This document shows positions 9,205 through 44,681 of a stretch of DNA of 45,095 nucleotides, piece by piece (within the stretch, counting starts at the first letter, position 1; each line of letters begins with the position of its first letter). The translations under genes and the position numbers were made by a program. The notes under the pieces are model-generated. The model was not told the DNA's origin. It worked only from the letters and a program-made list of their open reading frames with translations, and did no database searches. The stretch is from the IMG/VR virus record IMGVR_UViG_3300022602_000172, positions 1 to 45,095 of that record, one strand, 5' to 3'. This DNA comes from a virus (taxonomy: Duplodnaviria > Caudoviricetes).

Positions 9205-9853
9205 TTGCTTGTACTTTGGTATACAAGTCATCGATACTTGTATCATTGGTTAGCACATGGTCAAATTTAGTACCAACCCATGCAGTTTCGCTAGCATGAA
9301 TCTTTAGTTTGTCCATTCTAGTCTTGGCCAACATCCAGTTGATATGATGATCGCCAGCATTCATGTCTACAGCATCTTGATACCAGTCGGGTTCTGGACT
9401 TCTTTTTACACGGATAACAATACCACCCGCATCTTTGATTGATTTAATTTCGTTAGGAAACCGACAATCACTGATAACAATATCATCCTTACTGTTACGC
9501 AATTTGTTTTCTAAACTGGCAATCCACACATCGTCGTGGAAACCTTTGCGGCAAACTTCTGTACCCCAGTATTGTAAGACCCAGCGTGGTGTGAGATTTG
9601 GCATGTCTAATCGTTCTGCCCACCAAGGGTCCACTTGTTCACGCCATTCACGGGCTTGTTTAGTACGACCTTCTAACATGGTTCTATCCCAACCAAACAC
9701 CATACTAACTGCGTCTTTTAAACTGTTGGCAAAACTTTCTCGTCTGTAACCGTGAAAAGTGACAAGGTAGTCCGCTATTGTGTCTTTTCCTGCCCCTATC
9801 AGCCCGCAAATGCCAATAATTCTTTTATTTTTTCGATTTACATTTGTCTCCAT
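9167..9853 (-). CDS. gp1: Deoxynucleoside monophosphate kinase (start uncertain: ATG 9865, ATG 9853 or ATT 9820)
   Basis: IIGICGLIGAGKDT P-loop, FANSLKD, TPRWVLQYWGTE, ISDCRFPNE and HASE. Confidence 0.9.
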   Translation of the reverse strand: METNVNRKNKRIIGICGLIGAGKDTIADYLVTFHGYRRESFANSLKDAVSMVFGWDRTMLEGRTKQAREWREQVDPWWAERLDMPNLTPRWVLQYWGTEVCRKGFHDDVWIASLENKLRNSKDDIVISDCRFPNEIKSIKDAGGIVIRVKRSPEPDWYQDAVDMNAGDHHINWMLAKTRMDKLKIHASETAWVGTKFDHVLTNDTSIDDLYTKVQAIINPEQDLPVAI

Positions 9854-10577
9854 GCCACCTCCCATAGTTCATAGCATCTACTTCCATAGCACAATAGTAA
9901 CATATTTTTTTAGGAGATTCAAGTTTTTCTTTACTCTTTTTAGCTCGTTGTTCAGGTGAATGTTGTTTACCAAAAAAACCATTTGCTGTGCCAATATGTT
10001 TTTGTTTTGCTTTTATCTGATTGGCTTTTTCTTCACCATACATCTCTTCAAACGATTTTCCTTTATTATATGGAATTTTACCTTTCCTATTCTTTGAAGC
10101 AGATTCTTTCCACAACGCTGATTTTGGTTTAGAGGCTGAAATTGACATTTTTTCTTTTGTTTCTTTTGAATGAGTTTTTCCTAAGAATGTTCCTGAAATG
10201 TCTTTAAAACGATTTTGTTGTGCAATACTAAGTTTCTTTCTAGTTTCAGTTGGCATACCTGGGCTAGATTCTTTTAATATTTTGTAAACACGACTTGTTA
10301 TCTTGTATCGTTGTTGGCCAGGACCCACACAGCTGGCCATTAACAGGGCCGCTTTATGCATTTTGTATTTTGCAGACCCGGTTACCATTTTGGTCAAAAG
10401 CAGATGACAAATAAAGTGTTCTTTAGCAGTTAACGAAACTATGTTATCAATTACATCTAAACCGTTAAGACTCCTAGGTATTATATGATGATTTTCAATA
10501 TAACCTTCTAATACTCTGGTCTTGGCATGTTTAATAATTGCGCTATACCATCTTGAATATTTGTTGTTTAAAAACAT
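9825..10577 (-). mobile_element. Free-standing HNH homing endonuclease with NUMOD3-like repeats
   Basis: ENHHIIPRSLNG...LTAKEHFICHLLL, GKTHSKETKEKMS, GKQHSPEQRAK and C-terminal CxxC...NYGRWHGDKC; has its own TATAAATA at 10595-10602. Confidence 0.88.
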
Positions 10578-10612
10578 ATCCTATTCTCCACACATATTTA
10601 TATGAAGTGGGT

Positions 10613-10641
10613 AAGATAATCTTATTTTATTACAAGGTCAA
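10613..10641 (-). promoter_or_regulatory. Putative sigma70-type promoter for the endonuclease/dNMP kinase
   Basis: TTGACC-17 nt-TATCTT, just after the gp13 stop. Confidence 0.5.
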
Positions 10642-10649
10642 GAAATTTC

Positions 10650-11438
10650 TTATCCTAATACAAAATAATAGCCCGAACCGCCAGCGGTATAGTCCATTAA
10701 TTCTTTGTCTAACTTTTCAATTTCTTCTTTTCCGGCAGATAGTAGTGCTGTGCCGTTCAAAGTAATTGGGCTTTGGGGGCCTGCTATACTGGCAAACTTG
10801 CTACGTGCTTCGCCTAAAATTAGTTTAGTAGTTGCTAATGTGTAATCTTTAAGCCACTGTTTGGCATAAACATCTTGCAATAATACCCAGTCTGGGCGGA
10901 AGTTGTAGCATTGTACTAGTATTTGTTCGCCTTGGGCAAACGGACGTTGTAGTATAGTTAAGATATGGCTGGTAGGTTTCCATTTAAATTCAATATAACT
11001 ACCAAACATTCTGCCGACTAGTTTTTGATAACCAGCAAAAGCATCGTATGTGGCTAGCCCTCCCATCATGCTTCCACTCATTAGGTAAGTGTTAGTATAA
11101 GCTAAGTTAAAAGGTTCAAATAGCGTACCTCCTGCACCAATTCCACTTCTTGAGCCAATGGCTCTACGAAATACTTGACGCACTTCGATAACTTCATCGG
11201 GCAATCTGTATTCATTTTGATCCTGTATTAGTTCAAGAAACATATAGCTTTCTTCTACGGCATTTGGGCTTCGTTGACGATAACGGTTTAGTGCGCGATC
11301 TAGTGCTGTTTCTACGTGTATAGGATCTAGCTCTAGATCAATCATGCCGTCGCCCAGCATGGTTTTTACATATTCAAACACTGCATTACGCTCGATAGTG
11401 CTGTTTGATTGGGTTGTTGACGGTAAGGAATCGGCCAT
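10650..11438 (-). CDS. gp13: Neck protein
   Basis: LGDGMIDLEL, YRLPDEVIEV and WLKDYTLA...GEARSKF...ITLNGTALL, the T4 gp13-like C-terminal signature. Confidence 0.85.
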   Translation of the reverse strand: MADSLPSTTQSNSTIERNAVFEYVKTMLGDGMIDLELDPIHVETALDRALNRYRQRSPNAVEESYMFLELIQDQNEYRLPDEVIEVRQVFRRAIGSRSGIGAGGTLFEPFNLAYTNTYLMSGSMMGGLATYDAFAGYQKLVGRMFGSYIEFKWKPTSHILTILQRPFAQGEQILVQCYNFRPDWVLLQDVYAKQWLKDYTLATTKLILGEARSKFASIAGPQSPITLNGTALLSAGKEEIEKLDKELMDYTAGGSGYYFVLG

Positions 11439-11455
11439 TTTTTGTTCTCCTTACA

Positions 11456-11475
11456 TATTTAGCTACTGATAAATA
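11456..11475. promoter_or_regulatory. Back-to-back late promoters
   Basis: TAAATA on the minus strand (11456-11461, for gp13) and on the plus strand (11470-11475, for the HNH/gp14 unit). Confidence 0.7.
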
Positions 11476-11479
11476 TCAT

Positions 11480-12199
11480 ATGGCCATCAATTTTCTAGAT
11501 AACAAATATACAAAATGGTATTTTGACATCGTTAGTAATGCTCAAAAAAGAGATATCATTGGCTATGTTGAAAAACATCATATTATGCCTAAAAGTTTAG
11601 GCGGAAATAACAAAAAAGAAAATCTAGTTAATTTAACGGCAAGAGAGCATTTTATTTGCCACTGGTTATTAACTAAAATGGTATCAAATATTAAACACAG
11701 ATACCAAATGTGGAATGCGTTTAGTTGTATGTTATATCGAGAAAACTCTAATCAGGAGCGATATAAAATTAGCTCAAAAATTTTTGATAATATCAAAAAA
11801 GAAGGAGCATATATTAAAAGTATTAATTTTTCAGGAGAAAATAATCCTATGTACGGAAAATGTGGGAAAGATCATCCATCATTTGGTATACAGTGGACTA
11901 ACGAAATGCGCAAAAATTCTTCAGAGTCGCACAAAGGATTAACTAGAAGTTTAGAATCTCGAAAAAAACAATCTGAAAAAACAAAAGGTAGAAAGCAATC
12001 AGCAGAACATATTGCCAAACGAATTCAACCAGGTAAAACACATTCTACTGAATCAAAAGAAAAAATTAAACAAGCAATATTAAAGATGCCAACAATTGTT
12101 TGTGAACATTGTCAGTTTTCAACAACTAAAGGAAACTATAAAAGATGGCACGGTAGCAATTGTAAACACATCCAAGGAGAATTAAAATTCCACGCTTAA
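11480..12199 (+). mobile_element. Free-standing HNH homing endonuclease with NUMOD3-like repeats
   Basis: Likely start MAINFLDNKY at 11480; EKHHIMPKSLGG...LTAREHFICHWLL, GKTHSTESKEKI and CEHC...NYKRWHGSNC. Confidence 0.88.
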
Positions 12200-21768: not shown

Positions 21769-22398
21769 ATGAACCTTAGAAAACTACTAGACGACGATAT
21801 TGATGTTGCAGCATTGCAGACTATACCCAATTTTGGATCTGCCTACACTAAACCAGTAGTTGGTATTTCTAGGGATGGTGTAATCAATTACCCTAAAACG
21901 TCACATGTTACTCGCCCTGACGAATTTGAAATAATTCCGGGTGTTGCGGCCGCGGTTGCTGAAATACGTCGAAAAGGATATAGGATTATTATATTGTCAA
22001 ATCAGTATGGTATCAGTGAAGGAAAGTTAACTCCTGTTGAAGTTGATATGGTCAATCAACGTATGCTTGAACTATTTGGTGAAGCCGGTTGTCCCAGCAT
22101 CGATGCCATGTACTATTCTACCAGTCGAATGAAAGAAGACATGTTTGCTTTGCCTAATATCGGCATGTTTCATCGTGCTGAGCGTGAACATCCGGTTAAG
22201 TTCAAAGAGGGCTGGTTTGTAGGAGATAAAATCAGCGATCTCAAAGCGGCTGAAAATATTAAATCTAAGCCTGTACTGATCAAGACAGGCGACTGGGAAG
22301 AGACTGTTAAAAAATTAGGCACATTTGCTAATAAAGACTTGCGTAAACGCACACAGGTTTTTGATAGCTTAATGGATTTCGCTGAAAGTTTAAGCTGA
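21769..22398 (+). CDS. GmhB/HisB-N-like HAD protein with degenerate active site
   Basis: SRDGVIN (normally DRDGxIN), LSNQYGI, ALPNIGM (normally KPxxGM) and VGDKISDLKAA. Confidence 0.85.
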   Translation: MNLRKLLDDDIDVAALQTIPNFGSAYTKPVVGISRDGVINYPKTSHVTRPDEFEIIPGVAAAVAEIRRKGYRIIILSNQYGISEGKLTPVEVDMVNQRMLELFGEAGCPSIDAMYYSTSRMKEDMFALPNIGMFHRAEREHPVKFKEGWFVGDKISDLKAAENIKSKPVLIKTGDWEETVKKLGTFANKDLRKRTQVFDSLMDFAESLS

Positions 22399-23238
22399 TC
22401 TAAATTCTTCTGGTATATCCAGTACAATTTCTTCCAAAGGAAAATCGTAGTAAAAATACTGAGTTCCGGTTCTAGGAACTGAGGTTACCCACTCACCATT
22501 AATGACTACTCCGCTTTGACTGGATGTGTCTCCATGGTACTCGGAACCGTCCATCATATAGCAATTATCTACTGTAATAATGGCCATCTTGTTTATAAAC
22601 GAAAATCTTCTTAGATTAATGTCGTGCCAAGTTTCTTGTATTTCTTTATCTAATTCCATGCTGAGGCCGTTTTGCGGAGCAACATTTCTATGTCCGTTAG
22701 TAGCATGTATTAACAAGTTTGCTCCTAATTTCCTCAATTCTCCAGGAACACAGGGCTGACCGTCGATACCGTACATGTCTATACATATTAGTCCGCCAAC
22801 GGGAACAAATCTAGAGCTGTCCACTATTAAAGGTAACGCATGTGTTCTATAATCACCGATAACTCCAATTTCTTGATCTCTTTCTATAGCATAATGCTTA
22901 TTAACATACCCTAAAAAATTTCCATTATTTTGATAAAATCGAATTTGATTGCGTCTTACGGAGTTCCCATCCTCATTCTCATCCCATAATGTTCCTAAAC
23001 ACAACCCAACATTTTTTGCAGCTGCATATTTTTCTATTTCAGCCAAGCCGTCAACAGTTCTGTTGAAATCGTTATTAAAATCAGCTGTATAACCGCTTAG
23101 AGATGCTTCGGGTGTTACTAAGTAGTCAACATTGTTTTCACTTGCCCAATCGATGGCCCTTCTTATTTCCATAACATTGGTTTGTGTGTATGGAGTAACT
23201 GGGATTTGTGCGCCTGCTAGTCTTATATTTGTTTTCAT
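22390..23238 (-). CDS. Nitrilase-superfamily carbon-nitrogen hydrolase (paralog B)
   Basis: Glu-Lys-Cys triad pattern: LVTPEASLSGY, VNKH, GLICIDMY. Confidence 0.85.
   Translation of the reverse strand: MKTNIRLAGAQIPVTPYTQTNVMEIRRAIDWASENNVDYLVTPEASLSGYTADFNNDFNRTVDGLAEIEKYAAAKNVGLCLGTLWDENEDGNSVRRNQIRFYQNNGNFLGYVNKHYAIERDQEIGVIGDYRTHALPLIVDSSRFVPVGGLICIDMYGIDGQPCVPGELRKLGANLLIHATNGHRNVAPQNGLSMELDKEIQETWHDINLRRFSFINKMAIITVDNCYMMDGSEYHGDTSSQSGVVINGEWVTSVPRTGTQYFYYDFPLEEIVLDIPEEFRSA
23108..23151. repeat. 44-bp perfect repeat, copy 1 (copy 2 at 23938-23981)
   Basis: TCGGGTGTTACTAAGTAGTCAACATTGTTTTCACTTGCCCAATC is identical in both nitrilase paralogs. Confidence 0.9.
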
Positions 23239-24083
23239 TCTATAGGTTCTTTTAAAATTATGTCATCTAATTCAAGGTCATGATAAAAGTATTGAGTATC
23301 TGTTCTTGGAACACTAGTAACCCATACTCCGTTGATCAATACTCCACTTTGTGTCAAGGTATTTCCGTGATATTCTGTACCATCCATCATATAACAGTTA
23401 TCCACAACAATGATAGGGCAACGTTGATACATGGATACTCTTCGCAACCATGCTTCTACCCAAATTTCTTCAATTTCATTTTTGACTGGATCTGTATTAC
23501 GTTCTCCGTTGGTAGCATGAATGAATAACTTTACACCCATATCATGATATTGTTGAGGTAAACCGCCCTTGGCGCCACCCCAACCGTAGATATCTGCACA
23601 AATGAGACCAGCTGTAGGAATAATATTATCTTTAAAAGGTACGGCTATACCAGATAGCACAATATCAGGGGCTACGCCAATTGCAGTGTCTAACTCAGTC
23701 ATTACTGTTTTGCCGCTTGACCCTAAATATATTCCGTCTGGTGTATAATATCTAATTTGATTTTTGTTGACAGTAGACAGCTCGCCGGTATCTGTTTTAT
23801 AGATTTCTTGCCATATTGTGCCTAGGCATAATCCAACTGTTTTTTCTTTAGCATACGCTTCAATTTCACCAAGTGCTAATATTAAATCGGGTAGCTTTTT
23901 ATCAAGACAATTGATACTATATCCACTTAATGATGCCTCGGGTGTTACTAAGTAGTCAACATTGTTTTCACTTGCCCAATCAATGGCTTGTTTAATGGTA
24001 TCGGCATTTGTTTGGATTGAAGGAGTAACAGGAATCTGTGCCCCTCCAATTCTTATTGTTTTATTCATAGGTTTATTCTTCAT
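23235..24083 (-). CDS. Nitrilase-superfamily carbon-nitrogen hydrolase (paralog A)
   Basis: LVTPEASLSGY, SGKT and GLICADIY; colinear with paralog B. Confidence 0.85.
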   Translation of the reverse strand: MKNKPMNKTIRIGGAQIPVTPSIQTNADTIKQAIDWASENNVDYLVTPEASLSGYSINCLDKKLPDLILALGEIEAYAKEKTVGLCLGTIWQEIYKTDTGELSTVNKNQIRYYTPDGIYLGSSGKTVMTELDTAIGVAPDIVLSGIAVPFKDNIIPTAGLICADIYGWGGAKGGLPQQYHDMGVKLFIHATNGERNTDPVKNEIEEIWVEAWLRRVSMYQRCPIIVVDNCYMMDGTEYHGNTLTQSGVLINGVWVTSVPRTDTQYFYHDLELDDIILKEPIE

Positions 24084-25872
24084 TGAGAATTCTAATTAAT
24101 TTGTTGTACTCTGGAAGATACAGATATTCTATTTCACTTCGTGATAGAGTCTCTAATGCATCTTCCAATGTCTCAACCAATGGATCGCCGCCTAGATTAA
24201 AACTGGTATTAAACAAAATAGGAACACCAGACACATTGTAAAATTCTTTAATCAAATTGTAAAAATGTTTATTCTGATCAGGTGTAACTGTTTGTATTCT
24301 GCATGTGCCGTCCACGTGAATAATACTGGGTACTTTTTCAACAACTCCTGGTTGACAATTTACAGCATACATCATGCTAGGACTTTCTTCCATGCCTCGT
24401 AGGTCAAACCATTCGTGCACATGTTCTTGCAATATACTTCCGGCAAATGGACGGAAATACTCTCGATGTTTTACATTGTTAACAAAATCTTTACCGTCTA
24501 TAACAGTTGGGTCAAATAATATGCTTCTATTGCCCAGTGCACGGGGGCCGTTTTCGCTGCGTCCTTGAAACATTGCAACAATATTTTTATTTTTAATTAA
24601 TGTTGCAATATCTGCACAAGTAGCATCAATATATTCTGCTTCGTATGCGGCACAAGCAGATTCAATATCATCCATTGAATATTGATATTCAAACCCTAAA
24701 TATAAATTATCTGTAAATTTAGTGATTGTAGAATCGTTGTACAACATACGGTGCACTATCATTGCTGCTCCCATTGCAGTACCGGCATCATTGCTAATTG
24801 GTTCAACATACAAATTGATGCCTTTTTCCCTTAGGGTGTTTAGATAAAAATAGTTTGCCACGCAATTTAATCCGTACCCGCCACTTATTACAACATTATT
24901 TTTTCCAGAAATTTCCACTGCTTTCAATATCAATTGTAGAACTTGTTCTTGAGTTTGAGTTTGACAAGCATATGCCAAATCTCTACGATTCTCCATTGTG
25001 CTGAGGTCTTGAGCATTTTTATCGGCTAGATATTCAAATAGATCTTCGTTAATAACTGCACCGTTAGGATAACGGGGAATTACTAAATTTCTATTAGAAG
25101 TTGGGTATGTACCGGTTGTATCAAACAATTTTGGTATTCGGTCTGATTCTTTTCCGTAAGGAAACAAGCCCATGGTTTTGCCAGCTTCGATTGCGGTAAA
25201 TCCACAGTACTCTGTAACTGCTTCGTACACTTTAACAATACCGGCATGGTCTCCAATTCTAGCTTCGTGTGTTGTATTTTCTTTATATCGATCGCCTGAA
25301 AAATTCTTAACAATTGCGCCTAGGCGAGGTTCTTTGATACCGATATGTTTGTACAAAGTTCTGAATTCGGCTGGATAGGCACACTCAAAAATTGACTCAG
25401 TTTCCCAGCCTGTTAAATGTTCTCCTTGGAACTCTAAATCCAAGAATGTTCCTGCACCGTCTACAATAACTGAAACAGCATCTTCAAATCCTGAACGATA
25501 AAATGCGCAGGCTGCATGTAATTTATGATGAACAAAACTGAGATCAATCACCTGATGATGATTGAATCTATCGCCCTTTCTATCTATTAACCCTAATTTA
25601 CGAGCAAACCCGGTATACATGTCTTCGCCACTAAAGTCAATTTTTCCAGCTGTTTCTTTAGGAGTAGTATGCGCAATAACAAGATAATCCAGTTTGTCAG
25701 TATAATCAAGGATTTTCAGCATACTTGCTAACGGACCCCCGTCATATTTTTGACGAGTAATACGTTCTTCTTCAATACTGAAAACAATTTCTCCATCTTT
25801 TAGTAAGCAAACTCCAGCATTATGCCCTCGAGTGATACCTGCTATCCAAATACTTCTTTTTTGTTCTGTCAT
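24073..25872 (-). CDS. Carbamoyltransferase (NodU/CmcH/TobZ family)
   Basis: EEERITRQK, HHKLHA, GKTMGL, GGYGLNCVAN, NDAG, GPRALGNRSIL, REYFRPFA, HVDGTCRIQTV and NTSFN. Confidence 0.95.
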   Translation of the reverse strand: MTEQKRSIWIAGITRGHNAGVCLLKDGEIVFSIEEERITRQKYDGGPLASMLKILDYTDKLDYLVIAHTTPKETAGKIDFSGEDMYTGFARKLGLIDRKGDRFNHHQVIDLSFVHHKLHAACAFYRSGFEDAVSVIVDGAGTFLDLEFQGEHLTGWETESIFECAYPAEFRTLYKHIGIKEPRLGAIVKNFSGDRYKENTTHEARIGDHAGIVKVYEAVTEYCGFTAIEAGKTMGLFPYGKESDRIPKLFDTTGTYPTSNRNLVIPRYPNGAVINEDLFEYLADKNAQDLSTMENRRDLAYACQTQTQEQVLQLILKAVEISGKNNVVISGGYGLNCVANYFYLNTLREKGINLYVEPISNDAGTAMGAAMIVHRMLYNDSTITKFTDNLYLGFEYQYSMDDIESACAAYEAEYIDATCADIATLIKNKNIVAMFQGRSENGPRALGNRSILFDPTVIDGKDFVNNVKHREYFRPFAGSILQEHVHEWFDLRGMEESPSMMYAVNCQPGVVEKVPSIIHVDGTCRIQTVTPDQNKHFYNLIKEFYNVSGVPILFNTSFNLGGDPLVETLEDALETLSRSEIEYLYLPEYNKLIRILNEE

Positions 25873-26928: not shown

Positions 26929-28161
26929 TTATGTTGAAGTTGTTGCAGTAGTACCGGTAGTGCCAACAGTTGAAGTTGTTGCAGTAGTACCGGTAGTGCC
27001 AACAGTTGAAGTTGTTCCTGTTGTTCCAGTAGTTCCGGTAGTACCAGTGGTTCCTGTTGTACCGGTCGTGCCTGTTGTACCAGTGGTTCCGGTAGTACCA
27101 GTGGTACCTGTGGTTCCTGTAGTGCCAGTGGTTCCTGTAGTACCTGTGGTTCCTGTAGTACCTGTGGTTCCTGTAGTGCCAACAGTTGAAGTTGTTGCTG
27201 CTTCTTGCGCCAGTTGCTGTGTATAAGCCGCTTGTACCATTTCAGTAGTTAAACTAATGTCAGGGTTGCTGTCAATTAAACTCTGACGAACTTCTTCAAA
27301 TTTAGCAACGGATGCAGAGTGTGTTGGATGACCGTCATGCAACTCGTCCCACGGTGCTAGTTTTGCTGCGTCTTCGGCTGTTACGGGGCAAATTGAATCT
27401 AGCACAAAATCTTCATCGTCGGTGTCATCGATGTGATATGCTGTTTCATGAGGTGTGGCGCCCCATGTTTCAGTACGCTCCAAATTTCTTGGTTCGTTTG
27501 GAATACCGTCGGGAATTCCGATTGGCATTGAATTATCTAAGCGCACCTGATCCATCATGGGCCACGCAACTTTCCAAGGATGCTTTTTACTAATTTGATT
27601 TAATATAACATAGTCAATTATTTCAAGACAATAGTTACCTATATCGCGCTGCTCTTGTGTTAAAATATCTTTTGATAGTCTTTCTGCAATCTGAGCTCTG
27701 TGACTTTTTCCTTGATTCATTAACATTTCCCAAGAAAATACCAGTTGCCACCATGCGTAGGTTACAATTCCATTTTCATCAACAGTGCATTTGCGTAAAT
27801 CGTAAGTGTGATCCAACGATGGTGGTTCGTGGCGTTGATAAACCATGTTGTATTTTTCGCAAACTGTTTCAACTTGATTGTCAGCTTTGTGATCTTCATG
27901 ATTGCAAATCATGGCCATTAAGGCAATATGATTTGGATTATGTGAATGCAAATAGATATCATCTTGTGTATCGTTGCTACTATCTGTACCACCATGAATT
28001 TCAGGATGACCGTCATGGTCATACTCCGTACTTTCAATCATTCGTGTTTGCTTGTTAACTCTAATTTTAAAATCGTGTGGACCATGATATTCGCTTGTTA
28101 TGGTTCTAAACCCGCTGGACAAGTCGTTATATTCGTTTGGTGCTAGATACGTGAATTTCAT
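26929..28161 (-). CDS. Putative tail-fibre assembly chaperone-like protein with acidic extension and Gly-Thr-Thr repeat tail
   Basis: Follows the fibre-tip genes. A helical segment ending HPWKVAWP resembles Tfa-type C-termini. His/Asp-rich, with a (GTT)n tail. Confidence 0.5.
26933..27190. repeat. Coding tandem repeat: degenerate 9-bp unit x19 plus a perfect 36-bp duplication
   Basis: 27010-27180 encodes (Gly-Thr-Thr)19. GTTGAAGTTGTTGCAGTAGTACCGGTAGTGCCAACA is repeated at 26933-26968 and 26969-27004. Confidence 0.92.
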
Positions 28162-28189: not shown

Positions 28190-29185
28190 TTATGACCAGC
28201 TGATTAACACAAGCGAAGTGCCGCCGGCGCCGCCTAAACAACAACCACCAGATATCGTGGTTCCACTTGCACTTGATCCGCCGCCGCCTGGCGTATTGCC
28301 TTGTGTTCCGCCAAATTGAGTACAACTATTTGAGCCGCAATCACAACATTGTGCTGCACCGCCTGCATAAGATGCGCCACCGCGGCCAAAGCCCGCACCC
28401 TGCCAAGAAGCAGTAGGCACTAGAAAACATGCGTTATCAGTTGCATATACAAGTTGTTGATCAGGTGCTGTAAACCCGCAACCGCCTCTTACATAAAAGT
28501 TAAAGTTGGTACAACAACTGCAAGATATTATGTTGCCAGTTCCGCCAGTTCGGTCACTAGTTCCTTGAATCAGTTGGAATGGCATGTTATTGTCTTGTCT
28601 AAATGGATTGGCTTGAGTTAAGAAACAAGCACCATCCATACAGTAGTTGTTAGACGCAAAGCCCCACCAGCAACAATTGATAGCCAGTGTACTATGATAA
28701 GGATTAAAATTTATATTAGTCCAACCGTTAGTACTACCACCTCCAGCATAGGCACACTGACACACAGTAGTACCGCCACATGCGCTAGTAGTGTTAACTA
28801 CCCAGCAAGTAATACCTGAGCTGCCGCAATCACAAACTCGTGCAAGTTGCCCTGGTGAGCCTGTCTGTGCACCAGCAGTTGGGGTAAAACATGCGCATGC
28901 GCATGCACAAATACAAAAAGTATGACTTGTAGCACTAGTAGCACATGCAACCCACCCATATTCGCCACCCATGCCGCCATTCGGTGAACCCATACAACAG
29001 CAACTGGCTGCACCGCCACCGCCTTGTCCCCACATTTCTATTACAAAACATGTAGCACTAGCAGGAATGCAGATACAACAGGCATTGCCGCCGGCTACAT
29101 ATGCACAGTTAGTTCTGTGAGTAGGCCTACACCATGTTCTACCAGTAGTTGCTCCAACTGTAAATAAACTTGTTATTAAACTCAT
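28190..29185 (-). CDS. Cys-rich glycine-rich-domain fibre-tip/adhesin-like protein B
   Basis: IPASATCFVIEMWGQGGGGA...GGMGGEY...PGGGG...GGAGGTSLVLISW; about 36 Cys in 331 aa. Confidence 0.75.
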   Translation of the reverse strand: MSLITSLFTVGATTGRTWCRPTHRTNCAYVAGGNACCICIPASATCFVIEMWGQGGGGAASCCCMGSPNGGMGGEYGWVACATSATSHTFCICACACACFTPTAGAQTGSPGQLARVCDCGSSGITCWVVNTTSACGGTTVCQCAYAGGGSTNGWTNINFNPYHSTLAINCCWWGFASNNYCMDGACFLTQANPFRQDNNMPFQLIQGTSDRTGGTGNIISCSCCTNFNFYVRGGCGFTAPDQQLVYATDNACFLVPTASWQGAGFGRGGASYAGGAAQCCDCGSNSCTQFGGTQGNTPGGGGSSASGTTISGGCCLGGAGGTSLVLISWS

Positions 29186-29194
29186 AATGTATCC

Positions 29195-30250
29195 TTAACA
29201 CCAACTAATTAAAATTAAACCATAGCCGCCGCAACTACCAGTTCCTTGTGCTGTTTGGGTCCATGCGCTCATCCCGCCGCCTGCTGGAAAGCTTCCGTTT
29301 TGTACCCAACAACCAGATGAATAACACAAGCCAATGCTGGTGCCAAAGAATGCTTGATTGCCGCCTGCATAAGCTGCTCCACCAACTCCAATACCAAATC
29401 CGCAAGCGGCATTTGGGATGCCAGTTTGAGCGCTTGTGCTATTTAGGCATGCATACGGAGTACTAGTCGTAGACACATCACTCCAACCGCATGCTCCTAG
29501 CCACACATAGGGACTATTGAAACAAGCACATGTGCACAAACAGCCCCATAACTGTGTTGTATTTAATCCAGCAAAACTACTAGTTACTGGTGCAGAGCAT
29601 GAACAGCATCCTGTGTACGAAATTGCGGCATTAGTAAACGATTGGCTGCTACAACCTTGTAAAAATAATCCAGAACTACTGCTGGTACTTGCCGGAGCGA
29701 CAGCTAAGGTTGCTGAACAGTTTTTCCAGAACAAATATGTGTTGTATTTGCCTTGATTGCTTGAACTAGCAACAGTTGATCCTTGATAACACCAAGGATT
29801 TGGCGTGCTTGGGGTGCAACACCACATGCCGCAGCTGCCGCCGTTAAGAATCCATGTGTTACTTGGACTATTACATTGTGTTACTATAGAACATTGTCCC
29901 TGATGCCCATAACAGATAGTGTTGCAATTCATACATTGACATATGCAAGCACATGCACACAAAATTTGATTGGTAGCACTGGTTGTGCATGTAACCCAGC
30001 CATATGTTCCACCTTGACCGCCATAGCTGCCAACTCCGCAACAACATCCGCCAGCGCCGCCGCCGCCTTGACTCCACATTTCGATAATAAAACATGTTGC
30101 TGATGTTGGCACACATACGCAACAAGAGTTGCCGCCAGTTATGTATACACAGCATGTGGGTTTGTGTTGTGGTCGGCACCACGCGCCAGCAATGGTGGAA
30201 GCACCTGAGCTAACTGATCCTGTGTTAATATATCCTAATACTGTTGTCAT
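29195..30250 (-). CDS. Cys-rich glycine-rich-domain fibre-tip/adhesin-like protein A
   Basis: VPTSATCFIIEMWSQGGGGA...GGQGGTY...PAGGG...GGYGLILISW; about 40 Cys in 351 aa. Confidence 0.75.
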   Translation of the reverse strand: MTTVLGYINTGSVSSGASTIAGAWCRPQHKPTCCVYITGGNSCCVCVPTSATCFIIEMWSQGGGGAGGCCCGVGSYGGQGGTYGWVTCTTSATNQILCACACICQCMNCNTICYGHQGQCSIVTQCNSPSNTWILNGGSCGMWCCTPSTPNPWCYQGSTVASSSNQGKYNTYLFWKNCSATLAVAPASTSSSSGLFLQGCSSQSFTNAAISYTGCCSCSAPVTSSFAGLNTTQLWGCLCTCACFNSPYVWLGACGWSDVSTTSTPYACLNSTSAQTGIPNAACGFGIGVGGAAYAGGNQAFFGTSIGLCYSSGCWVQNGSFPAGGGMSAWTQTAQGTGSCGGYGLILISWC

Positions 30251-37134: not shown

Positions 37135-37170
37135 GTTATTATACCCTTAGCGTATTCTATTTTTTATTTA

Positions 37171-37530
37171 TCAAAGATTGTCAGGCTGAGTGTAGCTATA
37201 CACAGCCCCAATTCTTGCCACCAATTCCCCATTGGAATTTATATAATAGTAGATACTTCTACTATCCCAGCGCATCTGTTCGTAATTTAAATTTGGATAT
37301 ACTAGATTATGATACACATCACGCCCTTCAAAAAAATCAGAGCCGCTAGCAAAGTCAATAAAATCGTTGCTGGCATCCCCAGGTGCATTAATTTGGATAG
37401 TGTCTGATCCAAACATAGTGTCTGATCTGACAAAATACAATGTACCATCTGCTGTGCGACGTAAGCCGTAAAAGAATCTAGGTTCTCCGCCTAAAAATTC
37501 TGTACTTGCATTATTACCAATATAACTCAT
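37171..37530 (-). CDS. Hypothetical virion-module protein
   Basis: ATG 37530 after AAGGA; MSYIGN...FFYGLRRTADG. Confidence 0.7.
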   Translation of the reverse strand: MSYIGNNASTEFLGGEPRFFYGLRRTADGTLYFVRSDTMFGSDTIQINAPGDASNDFIDFASGSDFFEGRDVYHNLVYPNLNYEQMRWDSRSIYYYINSNGELVARIGAVYSYTQPDNL

Positions 37531-37540
37531 GATCGTTTCC

Positions 37541-37888
37541 TTAACTAATTTCAACCCAACTCATAACTACATCTAAACTACTAGCTACTGTTGACTGCAT
37601 TTGCATAACTGTACTAGGACCTAGAATTAATTTTTCGCCACCGTTAATAACTCGTAAACTTTGATTAGCAGGAACTGCTACATTTTTTATGTAATAAGCT
37701 GTTGTAGGAATACCTGTGCCACCACCGTTAGGATCGGTTAGTACAATAGTTGCCAGTACTTGTTCTGTAGTGGTATTAGTTAGACTCATACCAATAATAG
37801 TTGTTGTAGCACTAGCATTTGAAGTCAGCACTGTAGTGAGACTAGTACCTATATTTGCTGATAATACATTTTTAAAAACTGATGTCAT
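37541..37888 (-). CDS. Small beta-rich fibre adaptor-like protein (family member 2)
   Basis: TTIIGMSLTN...VPANQSL...EKLIL...SWVEIS. Confidence 0.65.
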   Translation of the reverse strand: MTSVFKNVLSANIGTSLTTVLTSNASATTTIIGMSLTNTTTEQVLATIVLTDPNGGGTGIPTTAYYIKNVAVPANQSLRVINGGEKLILGPSTVMQMQSTVASSLDVVMSWVEIS

Positions 37889-37894
37889 TTTCTT

Positions 37895-38962
37895 TTATCC
37901 AAATGTTAAAACTGTTGCAATACCTACATCACTAGCCTGCGAAGTACTAATCCCGCCAACTGAACCTGCAATACTAGCCCATGCAGCTCCATTATACACT
38001 TCAACAGCTTGTTGAACAGTATTGTAACGAATCATACCAACTTCGTCTGAAGTAAGACTTGGTCTAGTAGTGTTATCGCCTGACGGAATTACAACACCGT
38101 ATGTCCCGCCAAACTTATAATAGCCTGATCCAGTTGAAACAAAATTTGAAACAGCACCTACGCTTGTATTTGTAATGGTGTTGTTATTAAACTGAAAATT
38201 GCCTAAAACTACGCTGCCGGTCCCGTTAGGTGTAAGGTTAATATCGGTATTATCTGTATACGTACTTATCGTATTTCCGCTAATATCCAAATTTGTTGTC
38301 TTAACGTCAGAAGTTAATATTGTAGTGGCATTAAGTGTGTTAGTATTAACTGTGCCTACATGGATATTATTCCATTGCAGGCTATTGCTACCTAAATTAT
38401 ATGTATTAGTTGCACTGGGTAAAATATCGCTGTTTACTTCAGCATCAAAAGTAACTGTGTCAGTTGATTGATTACCTAGTGTAATATTGCCGCCGGAGCC
38501 AGCATCGGCTGTAATATTACCGGTTACGTGTAAATCGCCATTAATTAAGGTATTAGAATTTAAATTAACTGATCCAGTGCCGCTTGGACTTACGTTAATA
38601 TCAACGTTTGTGCCTGCACTACTGATTGTATTAGCTGTAACTCGCAAACTGCCTACACTAATAGTTCCTTGATAAACTACAGCATTTGGGCTTGCTGGTG
38701 TAAGATTAATAGTTGAATTAGTGCTGCTAAGTGTATTACCGTTAAAGGTAAAACTAGCTAGCGTTGCGGTTGTTGTTGCTGTTAAATTGGTACTACGGAT
38801 TGTACCTGATACATCTAGGTCATATTGCGGCGTGGCGGTATTGATACCAACTCGGCGATTAGTTACATCTAGATAAAGAAGGCTCGTCTCGAAGGCCAAA
38901 TCCACGCCGTTGCGTAGGAGGTTGTCCTTTAAGAGCGGACCTGAAATTCGACCAACAGCCAT
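37895..38962 (-). CDS. Fibre-like virion protein, paralog of 39109-40200
   Basis: GRISGPLLKDNLLRNG, RVGINT, DINLTPNGTGSV repeats and GMIRYN. Confidence 0.75.
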   Translation of the reverse strand: MAVGRISGPLLKDNLLRNGVDLAFETSLLYLDVTNRRVGINTATPQYDLDVSGTIRSTNLTATTTATLASFTFNGNTLSSTNSTINLTPASPNAVVYQGTISVGSLRVTANTISSAGTNVDINVSPSGTGSVNLNSNTLINGDLHVTGNITADAGSGGNITLGNQSTDTVTFDAEVNSDILPSATNTYNLGSNSLQWNNIHVGTVNTNTLNATTILTSDVKTTNLDISGNTISTYTDNTDINLTPNGTGSVVLGNFQFNNNTITNTSVGAVSNFVSTGSGYYKFGGTYGVVIPSGDNTTRPSLTSDEVGMIRYNTVQQAVEVYNGAAWASIAGSVGGISTSQASDVGIATVLTFG

Positions 38963-39090
38963 TTACGCTCCCGTATACCCCGTGTTTCACGGTTAACCAA
39001 ATTTGGACAACATCGTCCGCAGCCCTTGGGCTCTTTGCTGGTTTACCACAGTATAATCTCGTAAAAACTTGGTCAGTCTTTACAGTAATA
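38963..39090 (-). ncRNA. Candidate structured cis-regulatory 5' leader RNA
   Basis: GC-rich leader of about 125 nt between TATAAATA (39092-39099) and the GGGAG RBS, with five to six predicted helices. Confidence 0.6.
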
Positions 39091-39108
39091 GTATTTATAG
39101 CTTTTTGG

Positions 39109-40200
39109 TTATAACCCTAGCATAAGGGTATAAACGAGAGATGTGTCGTCAAACTGTTGCGGGCTAACTATAGTACTCGGTGGTCCGACCCAATCAATCC
39201 AACCGTTGCTGGTTGAATAAACTTCGCCATTTTGACTTACAGGATTATATCTTATTGTGCCTTCTTCTGGAGTATAATCGGTAGCTGAGCTAGATGGAAT
39301 TACCAAGGCATTACTTCCAGTACCGCTAGTATCGCCTGTTTTAAAATTCCAATGTCCGCTGAGAATTTGGTTACTAGTTGCGGCAAATGTCAATGCGCCG
39401 TTACTGGTATTTGTTATAGTATCGTTATTAACTGTAACAAAATTTAAAAAATTAACTGTACCACTACTGGGTACAAATTGAATTGTATCGCCAGCTGTAG
39501 TAGTTTGTATTCTGTTGTTGTTGAAGTTTATATTGCCTATAGTAATATTATTACTGTAAAAACTAGTTATATTTGTAAGACTGGTATTGGTTGTATTTGA
39601 ATATATAGTTTTCCATACATTGGTGCCGGATCCAAGATTATATAATTTATTTTGATTTGGTAGTATGTCGCTATTGATTTCTGCACCAAATGTGACAGTA
39701 TCAGTAGGTTGATTACCTAGTGTGATATTACCGTCAAGTGTGATATTACCAGTTGCATGTAAATTACCAGTTACCAGTGTATTAGCATTTAATACAACTC
39801 GGCCTGTTGCTGTGATATTAATATCATCGCTTGCTTGAGTATTTTGTATATAGTTTGTGCCAAAATTTAAATTATCCGTACTAACACTTGGAGCAATAAT
39901 AGTAGGATTACTGGCTTGATTAGGCTGTATTGTTATAGCACTCAGGCCGTTATAAATTGTATTGCCTGAAACTATAAAATTAGCTAGATCTGATTCAGTA
40001 GTTACATTGAGATATTGACTGTTTGTACTTGTGCTGACAAATAAATCAACATTTACAGCATCGGCTGTGTTGTTGATGCCAACTCTATTGTTTACAACAT
40101 CAAAGTAAAGTAGTTCAGTATCAAAGGCAAGATTTGTTCCACGACGCAGCAGATTATCTGCTAGTAACGGTCCACTAATTCTGCCTAGTTCTCGTCCCAT
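39109..40200 (-). CDS. Fibre-like virion protein, paralog of 37895-38962
   Basis: GRISGPLLADNLLRRG and GNITLGNQPTDTVTFGAEINSDILP are shared with the paralog. Confidence 0.75.
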   Translation of the reverse strand: MGRELGRISGPLLADNLLRRGTNLAFDTELLYFDVVNNRVGINNTADAVNVDLFVSTSTNSQYLNVTTESDLANFIVSGNTIYNGLSAITIQPNQASNPTIIAPSVSTDNLNFGTNYIQNTQASDDINITATGRVVLNANTLVTGNLHATGNITLDGNITLGNQPTDTVTFGAEINSDILPNQNKLYNLGSGTNVWKTIYSNTTNTSLTNITSFYSNNITIGNINFNNNRIQTTTAGDTIQFVPSSGTVNFLNFVTVNNDTITNTSNGALTFAATSNQILSGHWNFKTGDTSGTGSNALVIPSSSATDYTPEEGTIRYNPVSQNGEVYSTSNGWIDWVGPPSTIVSPQQFDDTSLVYTLMLGL

Positions 40201-42593: not shown

Positions 42594-43526
42594 TTAATCG
42601 CTTTCAATTACAACTGTTACATTTTGTGTGGCGGCAGTATCAATTACCCAGCGTACTGTTGTACCTGTGGCAAATTGACCGGACCCTGCTGATTTACGAA
42701 CTAACAATGCTTTGTGAGCAGTTAATTTTAAAACCCAGTAGGCATTGCTGTCACTGTCAGTTGCTGTGATATCCATCTCGCCTGCGGCTGCGCTTGCATG
42801 GTCAACCAAACGAGCTACCACTGGAGCTAAACTATCAGTTTTAACTCGATAACGACGACTGCTTTCTTGTTTAAGAATATCAACATCGTTGCGAGCACCA
42901 TTGATAAAAGCACGAGCAAGAATAACAGCGTTGTCATAACCGTCAACTGTGGCTACTATTTTGACAAATGTTGTGGCATCCAATGTGGCATTGCCCGCAA
43001 TGGTTGTTGTGGTATCAGCTGGTACATAGCCTTGATTGGCAGTGCTGTTTGTTACTGCTACTGATTTAACACGATATGTAACTGTTACTGTGTTGTTGCC
43101 ATCACCACCTGCTTCGATAACATGAATTCCTGTAGTTGCTGTTATTGCTGTAAAGTCTCCGCGATTCATTCCTGTGCCGCTGAAATCAATAGTTTGAGTT
43201 TCACCTTGGCCTGAACCAACTGAGGTAATTTGAGCAATAACTCCTGGCAATTCTGTAAAAGTACAAGGACCAATTGAGTAACCATGTCCAGCTAGCAGTG
43301 TGCCTGAAACTGTAATAGTATCAATTTCCATGTGTACAGCATAAGTGGCCGCTACACCGTTGGGCAGTTGCGGTGCTGTGATTGTTACAGCTGGCACAGT
43401 TGTATAACCGCTACCTTGTGCGTTCAAGTTGATGGCTGTGATTCTTGAGCCACCTTCGCCGGTATCACCTGCTGTGTAAGGTGCTACTAAATTACCAAAA
43501 TATTTCTTCTTTAAAGGACGTCCCAT
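42594..43526 (-). CDS. Putative virion (head-decoration-like) protein
   Basis: MGRPLKKKYFG; GSGYTTVPAVTITAP repeat; strong AAGGAG RBS; near the capsid gene. Confidence 0.55.
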   Translation of the reverse strand: MGRPLKKKYFGNLVAPYTAGDTGEGGSRITAINLNAQGSGYTTVPAVTITAPQLPNGVAATYAVHMEIDTITVSGTLLAGHGYSIGPCTFTELPGVIAQITSVGSGQGETQTIDFSGTGMNRGDFTAITATTGIHVIEAGGDGNNTVTVTYRVKSVAVTNSTANQGYVPADTTTTIAGNATLDATTFVKIVATVDGYDNAVILARAFINGARNDVDILKQESSRRYRVKTDSLAPVVARLVDHASAAAGEMDITATDSDSNAYWVLKLTAHKALLVRKSAGSGQFATGTTVRWVIDTAATQNVTVVIESD

Positions 43527-43615
43527 TTTATTTTCTCCTTATGAAAACACGGCGTTCTAGGCCGTACGCGGTTGGATTTCCGCATAAAACTCACCCCATG
43601 TGAGTCATTACTATG
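43527..43615 (-). ncRNA. Candidate three-hairpin 5' leader RNA
   Basis: Three contiguous GC-rich hairpins between TAAATA (43616-43621) and the AAGGAG RBS. Confidence 0.55.
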
Positions 43616-43618
43616 TAT

Positions 43619-44200
43619 TTATGCGTAGGTAGTTCTCACGGCTACTTGGTCAACATAAGCTATATCACTATGCGGATAAGTTGTATTGCTTTTAAAACTG
43701 ATCACAACTCCAAATGTAGGATTAGTAACATCTACATTTGACAATGTTGTGCCCCACAAGTTAGTTGGACCGCCGTATATATTATAATCACCTATTGGAT
43801 TTAAAGGTTCTGTAAAATCGCCAGTATACATATCGCTTTGTACAGGATTTACCCAGCTAGCTTGATTGTCGCCTATTAGCTCACCGTTCAATGTTAATTG
43901 TATTATTAAATCTTCAATGCGAGCGGCACGTTGAATATTAAGTTGAAATTCTATACCAGTTAATGTACTAGAATTTGTAGGTATGTTAAAACCAGTCAAC
44001 CATATTTGACTAGTATTACTTAGGAATTTTTCCATCCACAAACCGCTAATAGTATAAAGTGGTCGTTTACTAACAGCATAAGAACCTGTATCTGCAATAT
44101 ACTCTAGACCATTCCAATCGATACTCGACATCCCTGTTATCTCGTTAGGAATTGTTACTTGATTAATTGTGGTTGGAGGTAAAAAAGAAATAGTAGTCAT
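43619..44200 (-). CDS. Hypothetical beta-sandwich protein
   Basis: Likely start MTTISFLPP at 44200, 4 nt after TAAATA; the longer ORF-track start overlaps the opposite gene. Confidence 0.7.
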   Translation of the reverse strand: MTTISFLPPTTINQVTIPNEITGMSSIDWNGLEYIADTGSYAVSKRPLYTISGLWMEKFLSNTSQIWLTGFNIPTNSSTLTGIEFQLNIQRAARIEDLIIQLTLNGELIGDNQASWVNPVQSDMYTGDFTEPLNPIGDYNIYGGPTNLWGTTLSNVDVTNPTFGVVISFKSNTTYPHSDIAYVDQVAVRTTYA

Positions 44201-44267: not shown

Positions 44268-44681
44268 ATGAAAACTTGTAAAAAATGTAACACAGAAAAA
44301 TCAATTACTGATTTTTATAAAGATAAAAATTCAAAAGACGGAACAACTTCTAGTTGTAAAGAATGTCGAAAGTCTGCCGAAAGATCTTACTATCATAAAC
44401 ATATTGATAAACGAAGAATATTATATAAAAATAGAAGATTGAGTAGAACAAATGGTGAGCAGTTGACCTTAGAAAGTTATCAAACAATGTTAACAGTACA
44501 AGAAAATAAATGCGGAATTTGTCAAGATAATATGAAAACTCCGTATGTTGATCATAATCATATAACTGGAAATATTCGAATGTTGTTATGTCATCATTGT
44601 AACTGTTTAATAGGCAATGCTAAAGAGAGTATTACTATTTTAGAAGACGCAATAAAATATATTAAAAAATTTAACTCATAA
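44268..44681 (+). mobile_element. Endonuclease VII-like HNH homing endonuclease
   Basis: KTCKKC...CKEC Zn finger, QENKCGIC and VDHNHITGNIRMLLCHHCN...AIKYI; own TAAATA at 44234-44239; antisense to its neighbours. Confidence 0.85.

Follow-up and report, generated by a model that had tools for sequence, protein, structure and literature searches.

Comparison of homologous leaders indicates that the gap between two paralogous genes of aquatic, uncultured jumbo phages is filled by a real, widespread, conserved, and uncatalogued cis-regulatory RNA, which is tied to one gene and extends 26 codons into it. On balance, we lean toward reading this leader as a translational operator, a brake that would limit initiation and whose compact core is likely where a late protein of the phage binds. 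All coordinates given here are positions in the window, which is the whole 45,095-nt stretch of viral DNA that was analyzed, and the leader reads on its minus strand (Table 1).

The window has the look of a T4-like jumbo phage's virion module. The C terminus of its capsid protein is 67-77% identical to the counterparts in Phosso, PA5oct, XaC1, and GAP32, and related records reach 345-400 kb. The leader occupies the 146 nt that separate the two paralogous genes, both of whose proteins open with the peptide GRISGPLL. The original prediction had placed TATAAATA upstream of the element and had described the paralog starting at 40200 as lacking it; we find the former at 39099-39092, and the absence from the paralog is confirmed. 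At 11 of 39 sites in the window, the TAAATA core of this predicted late promoter stands 5-38 nt before a listed gene start, and ATAAATA is the predicted late motif reported for the Rak2-like jumbo phages CBB and GAP32 (PMC5259590). TAAAT[AG] served as the anchor for cutting leaders, so selection accounts in part for their having it. A sigma-70 scan did no better than chance. The two small downstream ORFs are probably on the same transcript as the 355-aa gene, and the next edge beyond them is a TAAATA at 37170.

The 355-aa product is likely a fiber-like virion protein, as judged from gene order, its neighbors in the Atlas, a weak PDB sequence match to 8ojn (E 0.001), and a low-confidence model. 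PF26696 PTL_trimer is found on 49% of members among its Atlas neighbors. The AlphaFold monomer (pTM 0.39) matches cyanophage virion proteins and has no PDB fold match at E ≤ 0.001. Pfam assigns the protein to no family, the PHROGs that it matches are of unknown function, and neither resource finds an RNA-binding domain in it.

Several other features of the window stood out. Downstream of a 2053-aa tail-fiber gene, two adjacent ORFs of 331 and 351 aa (28190-30250, minus strand) are very cysteine-rich and glycine-rich, and the C terminus of a 410-aa ORF carries a long TTG(T) tripeptide repeat (26929-27200, minus strand). Inside the structural region (22390-25872, minus strand) lie two tandem ORFs that we take, from their motifs, to be nitrilase-like and one that we take to be carbamoyltransferase-like, which possibly modify virion proteins or glycans. 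Three ORFs among the neck and capsid genes (9825-12199 and 44268-44681), two of them on the opposite strand, are presumably homing-endonuclease-like, again judging by motifs.

Table 1. Features of the leader and its surroundings (window positions)
Feature	Position	Strand	Remarks
Regulated gene, MAVGRISGPLL..., 355 aa	37895..38962	-	likely trimeric fiber-like virion protein
Upstream paralog, 363 aa, same GRISGPLL peptide, without leader; natural control	39109..40200	-	
Pair of small ORFs downstream (115 and 127 aa)	37171..37888	-	7-nt gap and overlap
Predicted late promoter TATAAATA, conserved core TAAATA	39092..39099	-	motif
P1 hairpin, 9 bp, loop GACCA at 39074-39070	39061..39083	-	two-sided changes at 9/9 pairs in 65 homologs
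Closing stem P2, 5' strand	39051..39055	-	AC (39052-39051) general, partner GU 38978-38977
Core pseudoknot UGU (39050-39048)/GCA (39038-39036), around conserved GGUA and P3 5' strand	39036..39050	-	
P3 stem AACC-A (39043-39039)/U-(bulge)-GGUU (39000-38995)	38995..39043	-	encloses variable region
Two optional hairpins, 39032-39021 and 39018-39005	39005..39032	-	both present in window
P4 hairpin CCGUGAAACACGG (type 1)	38980..38992	-	13/121 leaders carry the GGGACAGGAUCCC type
Shine-Dalgarno GGGAG plus CG, helix A 5' strand	38966..38972	-	
UUGGUCG in codons 3-5 (+8 to +14), kissing target for the P1 loop	38949..38955	-	
Shared coding strand, codons 9-13	38926..38937	-	helix A 38937-38931 or helix B 38934-38926
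Helix B 3' strand, codons 23-26 (+68 to +76)	38887..38895	-	one A.C mismatch in window

We collected homologs by three protein searches and one DNA pattern search, which yielded 39, 80, 80, and 119 loci. All 119 pattern matches, which lie in viral contigs, have a GRI[ST]G gene start after the leader. Among protein-found orthologs with a short N terminus and 120 nt of upstream sequence present, the leader precedes 113 of the 114 distinct ones (111 recognized by the pattern and 2 variants by eye), the single start without it being L027. It is missing from 9 of 12 starts with a longer N terminus. We kept 171 distinct full leaders, or 121 after reduction to <93% identity, and the distance from TAAATA to the start codon ranges across leaders from 96 to 149 nt. 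Each of five long records carries a single copy, and the window holds no second one; a weak second match in G005 proved to be the start of a leaderless paralog. About 170 stored viral stretches fit one strict leader pattern; the peptide pattern, common to the paralogs as well, is found in about 1200.

Two irregularities emerged among the collected loci. Twenty-one of 37 contigs cut short upstream (L159-L318) break off inside the leader, no more than 150 nt from the start codon; these ends are probably assembly breaks at long, near-identical sequence shared by co-occurring phages. At L050:544-700 (minus strand), P1 and the 5' part of the core appear deleted and the promoter region joins the variable region, by either natural deletion or misassembly.

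Outside this set of phages, a BLASTN search against cultured phages returned only 21-nt chance matches, and tblastn found no full-length ortholog. In bacterial and archaeal genomes, of which 28 of 64 parts were scanned with a loose pattern, none of at least 120 loci listed matches the leader model at E ≤ 1. Rfam 15 has 0 matches at E ≤ 10 over 38700-39400 and none at the gathering threshold, and on eight diverse homologous loci, its four weak matches all fall outside the leader. An undescribed cis-element had been proposed here, and this proposal is borne out by the empty Rfam result, by homologous leaders that are conserved and covary, and by their tie to the regulated gene. The parts of the literature consulted do not describe the leader RNA, part of which may be an unnamed candidate in the supplements of Fremin 2023 (PMC10690425) or Weinberg 2017. 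A term search of four tables accompanying the 10,006 candidate alignments of Fremin 2023 (PMC10690425) found no match.

Covariation across the 121 non-redundant leaders supports a fold in which a compact core, containing a pseudoknot of 3 bp, is flanked by a 5' hairpin (P1) and a 3' hairpin (P4). The folding energy of the 161-nt stretch is −46.7 kcal/mol (z −2.5), a value matched by 2 of 200 shuffles. For the window, we discarded the minimum-energy folds of the single sequence, in which the core pairs with the coding region, as they are unconserved. In a 65-row MAFFT alignment, the revised structure has 88.1% of cells paired, a level reached by 0 of 500 shuffles and well apart from the 41-50% of slid controls. 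The fold originally drawn pairs 72.7% of cells as a whole in the same homologs, a comparison that is unfair to its two inner hairpins, which MAFFT aligns poorly.

The sequence of P1 varies freely while its pairing is kept, and a GACCA-like loop is present in 105 of 121 leaders. The closing stem P2 reaches 4-6 bp in 12 of the 16 leaders without this loop versus 6 of the 105 with it. Within the core pseudoknot, the W/W' pair is U-A in 106 leaders and A-U in 15, with 0 exceptions among the 121, and the third pair is U.G in 107, U-A in 11, and C-G in 3. On a protein tree built from the protein minus its first codons, the pseudoknot shows 13 changes on each side, and seven of seven independent pairs agree (p 0.016). 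The N1/M2 pair of P3 (C-G 75, A-U 29, G.U 9, G-C 2, U-A 1, unpaired 5; n = 121) is the top mutual-information pair of an all-against-all scan and has changed 28 times on each side. In P4, the second pair is C-G in 102 leaders and G-C in 19, with 11 changes on each side, and a noncanonical pair beside the hairpin covaries as well (A.G 83, U.U 21, G-C 13). The parsing pattern fixed some core letters, so that invariance at those positions is partly by selection; pair combinations were left free.

All helices of the original prediction can be drawn at their minus-strand places, and the closing stem does stop with GGUAUA 1 nt before GGGAG. Conservation and covariation in orthologous leaders uphold the element as real but lend no support to the long closing stem, the outer pairs, or the switch that had been drawn. 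In the closing stem UAUACU/GGUAUA, AC/GU is general, whereas the outer three pairs fail in 37, 32, and 47 of 65 rows. The stem GGUAAACCA/UGGUUAACC contains an A.A mismatch, its outer pairs (GGU/ACC) are without covariation support, and, because CC is common to both, it and the CCGUG hairpin cannot both form fully. The two inner hairpins are present in the window but optional: by length class, 54 of 121 leaders have neither and carry a 6-nt loop there, 33 have one, and 34 have two. The alternative pairing CUGUG/CACGG, drawn as a switch, is perfect in 77 of 108 type-1 leaders and impossible in the 13 type-2 leaders, with no compensation. The description of the element as a GC-rich island fits the core, at 51% among the top 3% of 90-nt windows, but not the leader as a whole (42% versus 39% for the window). 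Finally, the element does not end at the ribosome-binding site, as had been supposed, but continues into the gene, to +33 at the least and probably to +76. Since the RNA pairs into the coding sequence, the link to translation is stronger than had been guessed.

The first of these contacts joins the P1 loop to codons 3-5, a kissing interaction that is shown by comparison, with three independent compensatory changes. The loop was located blind to the coding sequence, and this contact is the top match of a leader-versus-CDS scan. Its five central pairs, between loop GACCA and UGGUC of codons 3-5, hold in 95-104 of 105 leaders, and 199 of 210 variable cells are paired versus 182 ± 1.5 on permutation (0/10000). 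Three of the four genes that use the glycine codon GGA carry the loop GUCCA (L103, L213, and L226), each on its own branch, and the loop is gone from the fourth, L042. On the tree, A-U has become U-A three times independently. Other combinations are GACCG with GUC in five leaders and GACCU with GUA in L022; in five rows, a C at +9 is not compensated by a G in the loop. A sign test with six doubtful loop rows dropped has three pairs (p 0.25). We also considered pairing of the P1 loop with the core UGGU, which was rejected: all three GUCCA leaders keep the core UGGU while the codon changes.

The target codons are themselves constrained. GGT CGN is present in 117 of 121 leader genes versus 7 of 39 paralogs, a contrast for which the Fisher value overstates the case because the rows are related by descent. 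All 16 loop-less leaders keep GGUCG, so the kiss is not the sole possible cause of this constraint. These leaders are L046, L055, L064, L067, L069, L078, L081, L082, L100, L104, L107, L110, L114, L123, L142, and L152; several have GAUC-like words 3' of P1, for which weak pairing with the same codons is possible.

Synonymous constraint continues through codon 12 and reappears at codon 25, and the leaderless paralog encodes the same peptide without the codon constraints of the leader gene. CTC is used at codon 10 in 105 of 121 leader genes versus 2 of 39 paralogs and 12 of 436 leucine codons in nine large window genes, and GAG at codon 25 in 104 of 118 versus 39 of 311 later glutamate codons and 2 of 16 paralogs. 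We find moderate support for a helix, B, in which codons 10-13 would pair with codons 23-26. It tops an unbiased CDS-wide helix scan of 106 genes (0.75 versus 0.08) and is absent from 26 paralogs; a candidate inner hairpin, formed by codons 16-20, was dropped because it scored only 0.30 in the same scan. In the alignment, 93.4% of helix B cells are paired (row L286 counted as a gap), with 291 of 354 paired versus 268 ± 3 on permutation (0/10000). Codon choice is coupled across the helix: AAA (codon 12) is matched by GCT (codon 23) in 20 of 23 rows, and GCC by AAG in 42 of 44. There is one two-sided covarying pair, tree tests are short of significance (p 0.125) though never in the wrong direction, and the covariation score is about equaled by two slid controls.

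Supported, albeit more weakly, is a competing helix, A, in which codons 9-11 can cover the Shine-Dalgarno (SD) sequence; A and B overlap at +29 to +32. Helix A ranks second in the leader-versus-CDS scan, and its duplex, at −8.6 kcal/mol, is more stable than that of synonymous recodes (−4.8). Partner permutation gives −8.45 versus −8.62 (6/300), with little covariation, and the helix is weak in several clades. A strong SD is found in 121 of 121 leaders, and GAGC occurs in the spacer of 104 of 121 versus 5 of 13 paralogs with GGAG. The 3' strand of helix B resembles the SD, and helix A could therefore be partly incidental; the retention of GAGC in those 104 spacers argues that it is not wholly a by-product of B. 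When growing fragments of 117 homologs were folded, the probability of A was 0.66-0.90 at +35 to +65 and 0.06 at +80, and that of B was 0.72-0.76 from +80. After B forms, the SD is 0.36-0.66 free in these fragment folds, which omit the core and the kiss, and is thus not reliably freed.

These pairings can be arranged into a mechanism for a translational operator. Because the predicted promoter lies upstream of everything, late transcripts would carry the full element. During transcription, P1 and the core would fold first and leave the ribosome a short interval; the loop would then close on +8 to +14, helix A would form from about +33, and B would replace it from about +76. In the finished mRNA, the SD and AUG would lie inside a loop closed by the kiss, which would enclose the core, SD, and AUG, cover the ribosome's downstream footprint, and have to melt for initiation. 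Initiation would stay low until the structure is opened, either by a phage protein or by the ribosome, as in entrapment-type operators. The invariant unpaired bases of the core are a putative binding site for a trans factor that would set the firmness of this clasp and that would most likely be a late phage protein, either the gene's own product or an assembly partner. RegA (PF01818) was found in 0 of 5 records, and the control likewise gave no match. The purpose may be to set the dose of a minor virion component against that of its paralog. The base pairs in this scheme rest on comparison; the direction of control, its effector, and its purpose are our inference.

The same helices might instead limit initiation by folding order alone, as an effector-free kinetic timer in which the core is a scaffold for geometry or timing, an explanation that we consider unlikely. 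The A-then-B order does track transcript length in the fragment folds, the gene product has no RNA-binding domain, and the MS2 maturation-gene leader is described as yielding a low copy number by folding delay (PMC4615214). The SD partner in MS2, however, is upstream and here lies within the coding sequence, and invariant unpaired bases together with a 3-bp pseudoknot maintained through 13 double changes exceed a timer's needs.

Slightly less likely, in our estimate, is an RNA switch with its expression platform in the coding sequence. Here the pseudoknotted core would sense a ligand, be it a small molecule or an assembly protein of the phage, and decide during transcription whether codons 9-13 cover the SD or pair with codons 23-26, while the kissing loop clamps the start. 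If this were true, one fiber would be tuned against its paralog in hundreds of aquatic jumbo phages.

We give lower credence still to a translation enhancer or mRNA stabilizer, in which P1 would protect the 5' end, the core would recruit 30S or S1, the kiss would position the start, and B would keep the SD open. The kiss covers +8 to +14, which fall within the ribosome's initiation footprint, and GAGC, which lengthens helix A, is kept in 104 of 121 spacers; both speak against enhancement. In its favor are the strong SD of all 121 leaders, the status of B as the best-conserved coding helix and one that removes the anti-SD strand, and the reported binding of S1 to pseudoknots (PMC10931766).

A riboswitch-like sensor, whose core would bind a metabolite or ion, stack via P2 on helix A, and so choose A or B, seems to us improbable. 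The leader shares with riboswitches its conserved junction nucleotides and pseudoknotted multi-stem core, to which a noncanonical covarying pair, two competing helices downstream, and a P2 that ends 1 nt before helix A can be added. The core, however, shares no nucleotides with helices A or B; the element has a single gene context, that of a structural gene; no Rfam riboswitch matches it; and the model matches none of the at least 120 loose-pattern bacterial loci listed (28 of 64 parts scanned). Most improbable of all is a mainly nontranslational role, as a self-processing, trans-acting, or packaged RNA or as a conserved DNA anchor for fiber-module swapping, for although the element has its own predicted promoter and a compact tertiary core, and 21 of the 37 upstream-truncated contigs stop no more than 150 nt from the start codon, its pairing with coding sequence binds it to this mRNA, G.U pairs and compensation indicate RNA, all ribozyme models are without a match, and the contig breaks would be explained by near-identical sequence among co-occurring phages.

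Structured translational operators are, to our knowledge, hardly known from the late virion genes of DNA phages. A 2010 review of T4 describes the gene 32 pseudoknot as possibly the only viral pseudoknot in translational autoregulation (PMC3014915). The present family is widespread and comes with exact base pairs and a leaderless paralog as a built-in control. It offers a handle on how paralogous fibers may be dosed from one strong late promoter type in jumbo phages, a clean case in which RNA structure would impose rare codons along a 26-codon stretch of a gene, and a new, compact tertiary fold of potential use to structural work.

Among known phage RNAs, the T4/T2/RB69 gene 32 operator is likewise a leader of a T4-like phage mRNA with a pseudoknot upstream of the site where the ribosome binds, but its product is a single-stranded DNA-binding protein and an unstructured AU-rich tract covers the site (PMC3014915). 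Here, no single-stranded DNA-binding family is found in the product, and the ribosome-binding site is complementary to codons 9-11. The hairpins of T4 gene e and I-TevI also limit late-gene translation through RNA structure, but a late promoter within the 5' arm bypasses that structure (PMC3014915). In the present leader, TAAATA stands upstream of P1 with no other TAAATA before the start, and a predicted promoter upstream of the whole leader rules out a bypass of the gene e type.

The freshwater-2 RNA of Rfam (RF02980) occurs in the same phages, likewise directly after TAAATA and before a late gene, but it precedes a different gene, is composed of simple hairpins, and does not match the leader model. 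RF02980 matches the window only at 43524-43605 (minus strand; 74.7 bits), between a TAAATA at 43621, which directly precedes it, and a 310-aa gene located after the capsid region, and our leader model R1 scores that site at 10.4 bits (E 2.7). Only weak pairing, of −3 to −6 kcal/mol, is possible between the SD there and the first codons of that gene. Freshwater-2 RNA is present in four of five long records, and its occurrence alongside the fiber-gene leader means that these phages have two different structured late leaders.

The 5' UTR of the MS2 maturation gene is similar in being a multi-hairpin leader of a low-copy virion gene with SD sequestration (PMC4615214), and its synthesis-ordered alternatives have a computed counterpart here in the predicted swap from A to B; in contrast, the present leader belongs to a dsDNA jumbo phage, and its SD helix is predicted to be transient rather than the final state. 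The levivirus maturation-gene leader has an upstream SD partner that closes a cloverleaf, whereas in our leader, the SD partner lies at +26 to +32 and the closing stem stops before the SD.

In the operators of uS4 and uS15, the loop of a 5' hairpin base-pairs within the first few codons. The E. coli alpha operon and rpsO form pseudoknots over the ribosome-binding site that are described as repressing by entrapment, and the likeness to our leader is a pseudoknot that encloses the ribosome-binding site and start region (PMC10931766). Such a pseudoknot, spanning both elements, is what the P1 loop forms with codons 3-5, with compensation. The leader differs from these operators in having no sequence or model match to them, in preceding a phage structural gene rather than a ribosomal-protein operon, and in containing an extra pseudoknotted core inside the loop and two competing coding-region helices. 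By analogy, it would work most like the uS4/uS15 entrapment operators and resemble the MS2 leader in purpose, while belonging to neither.
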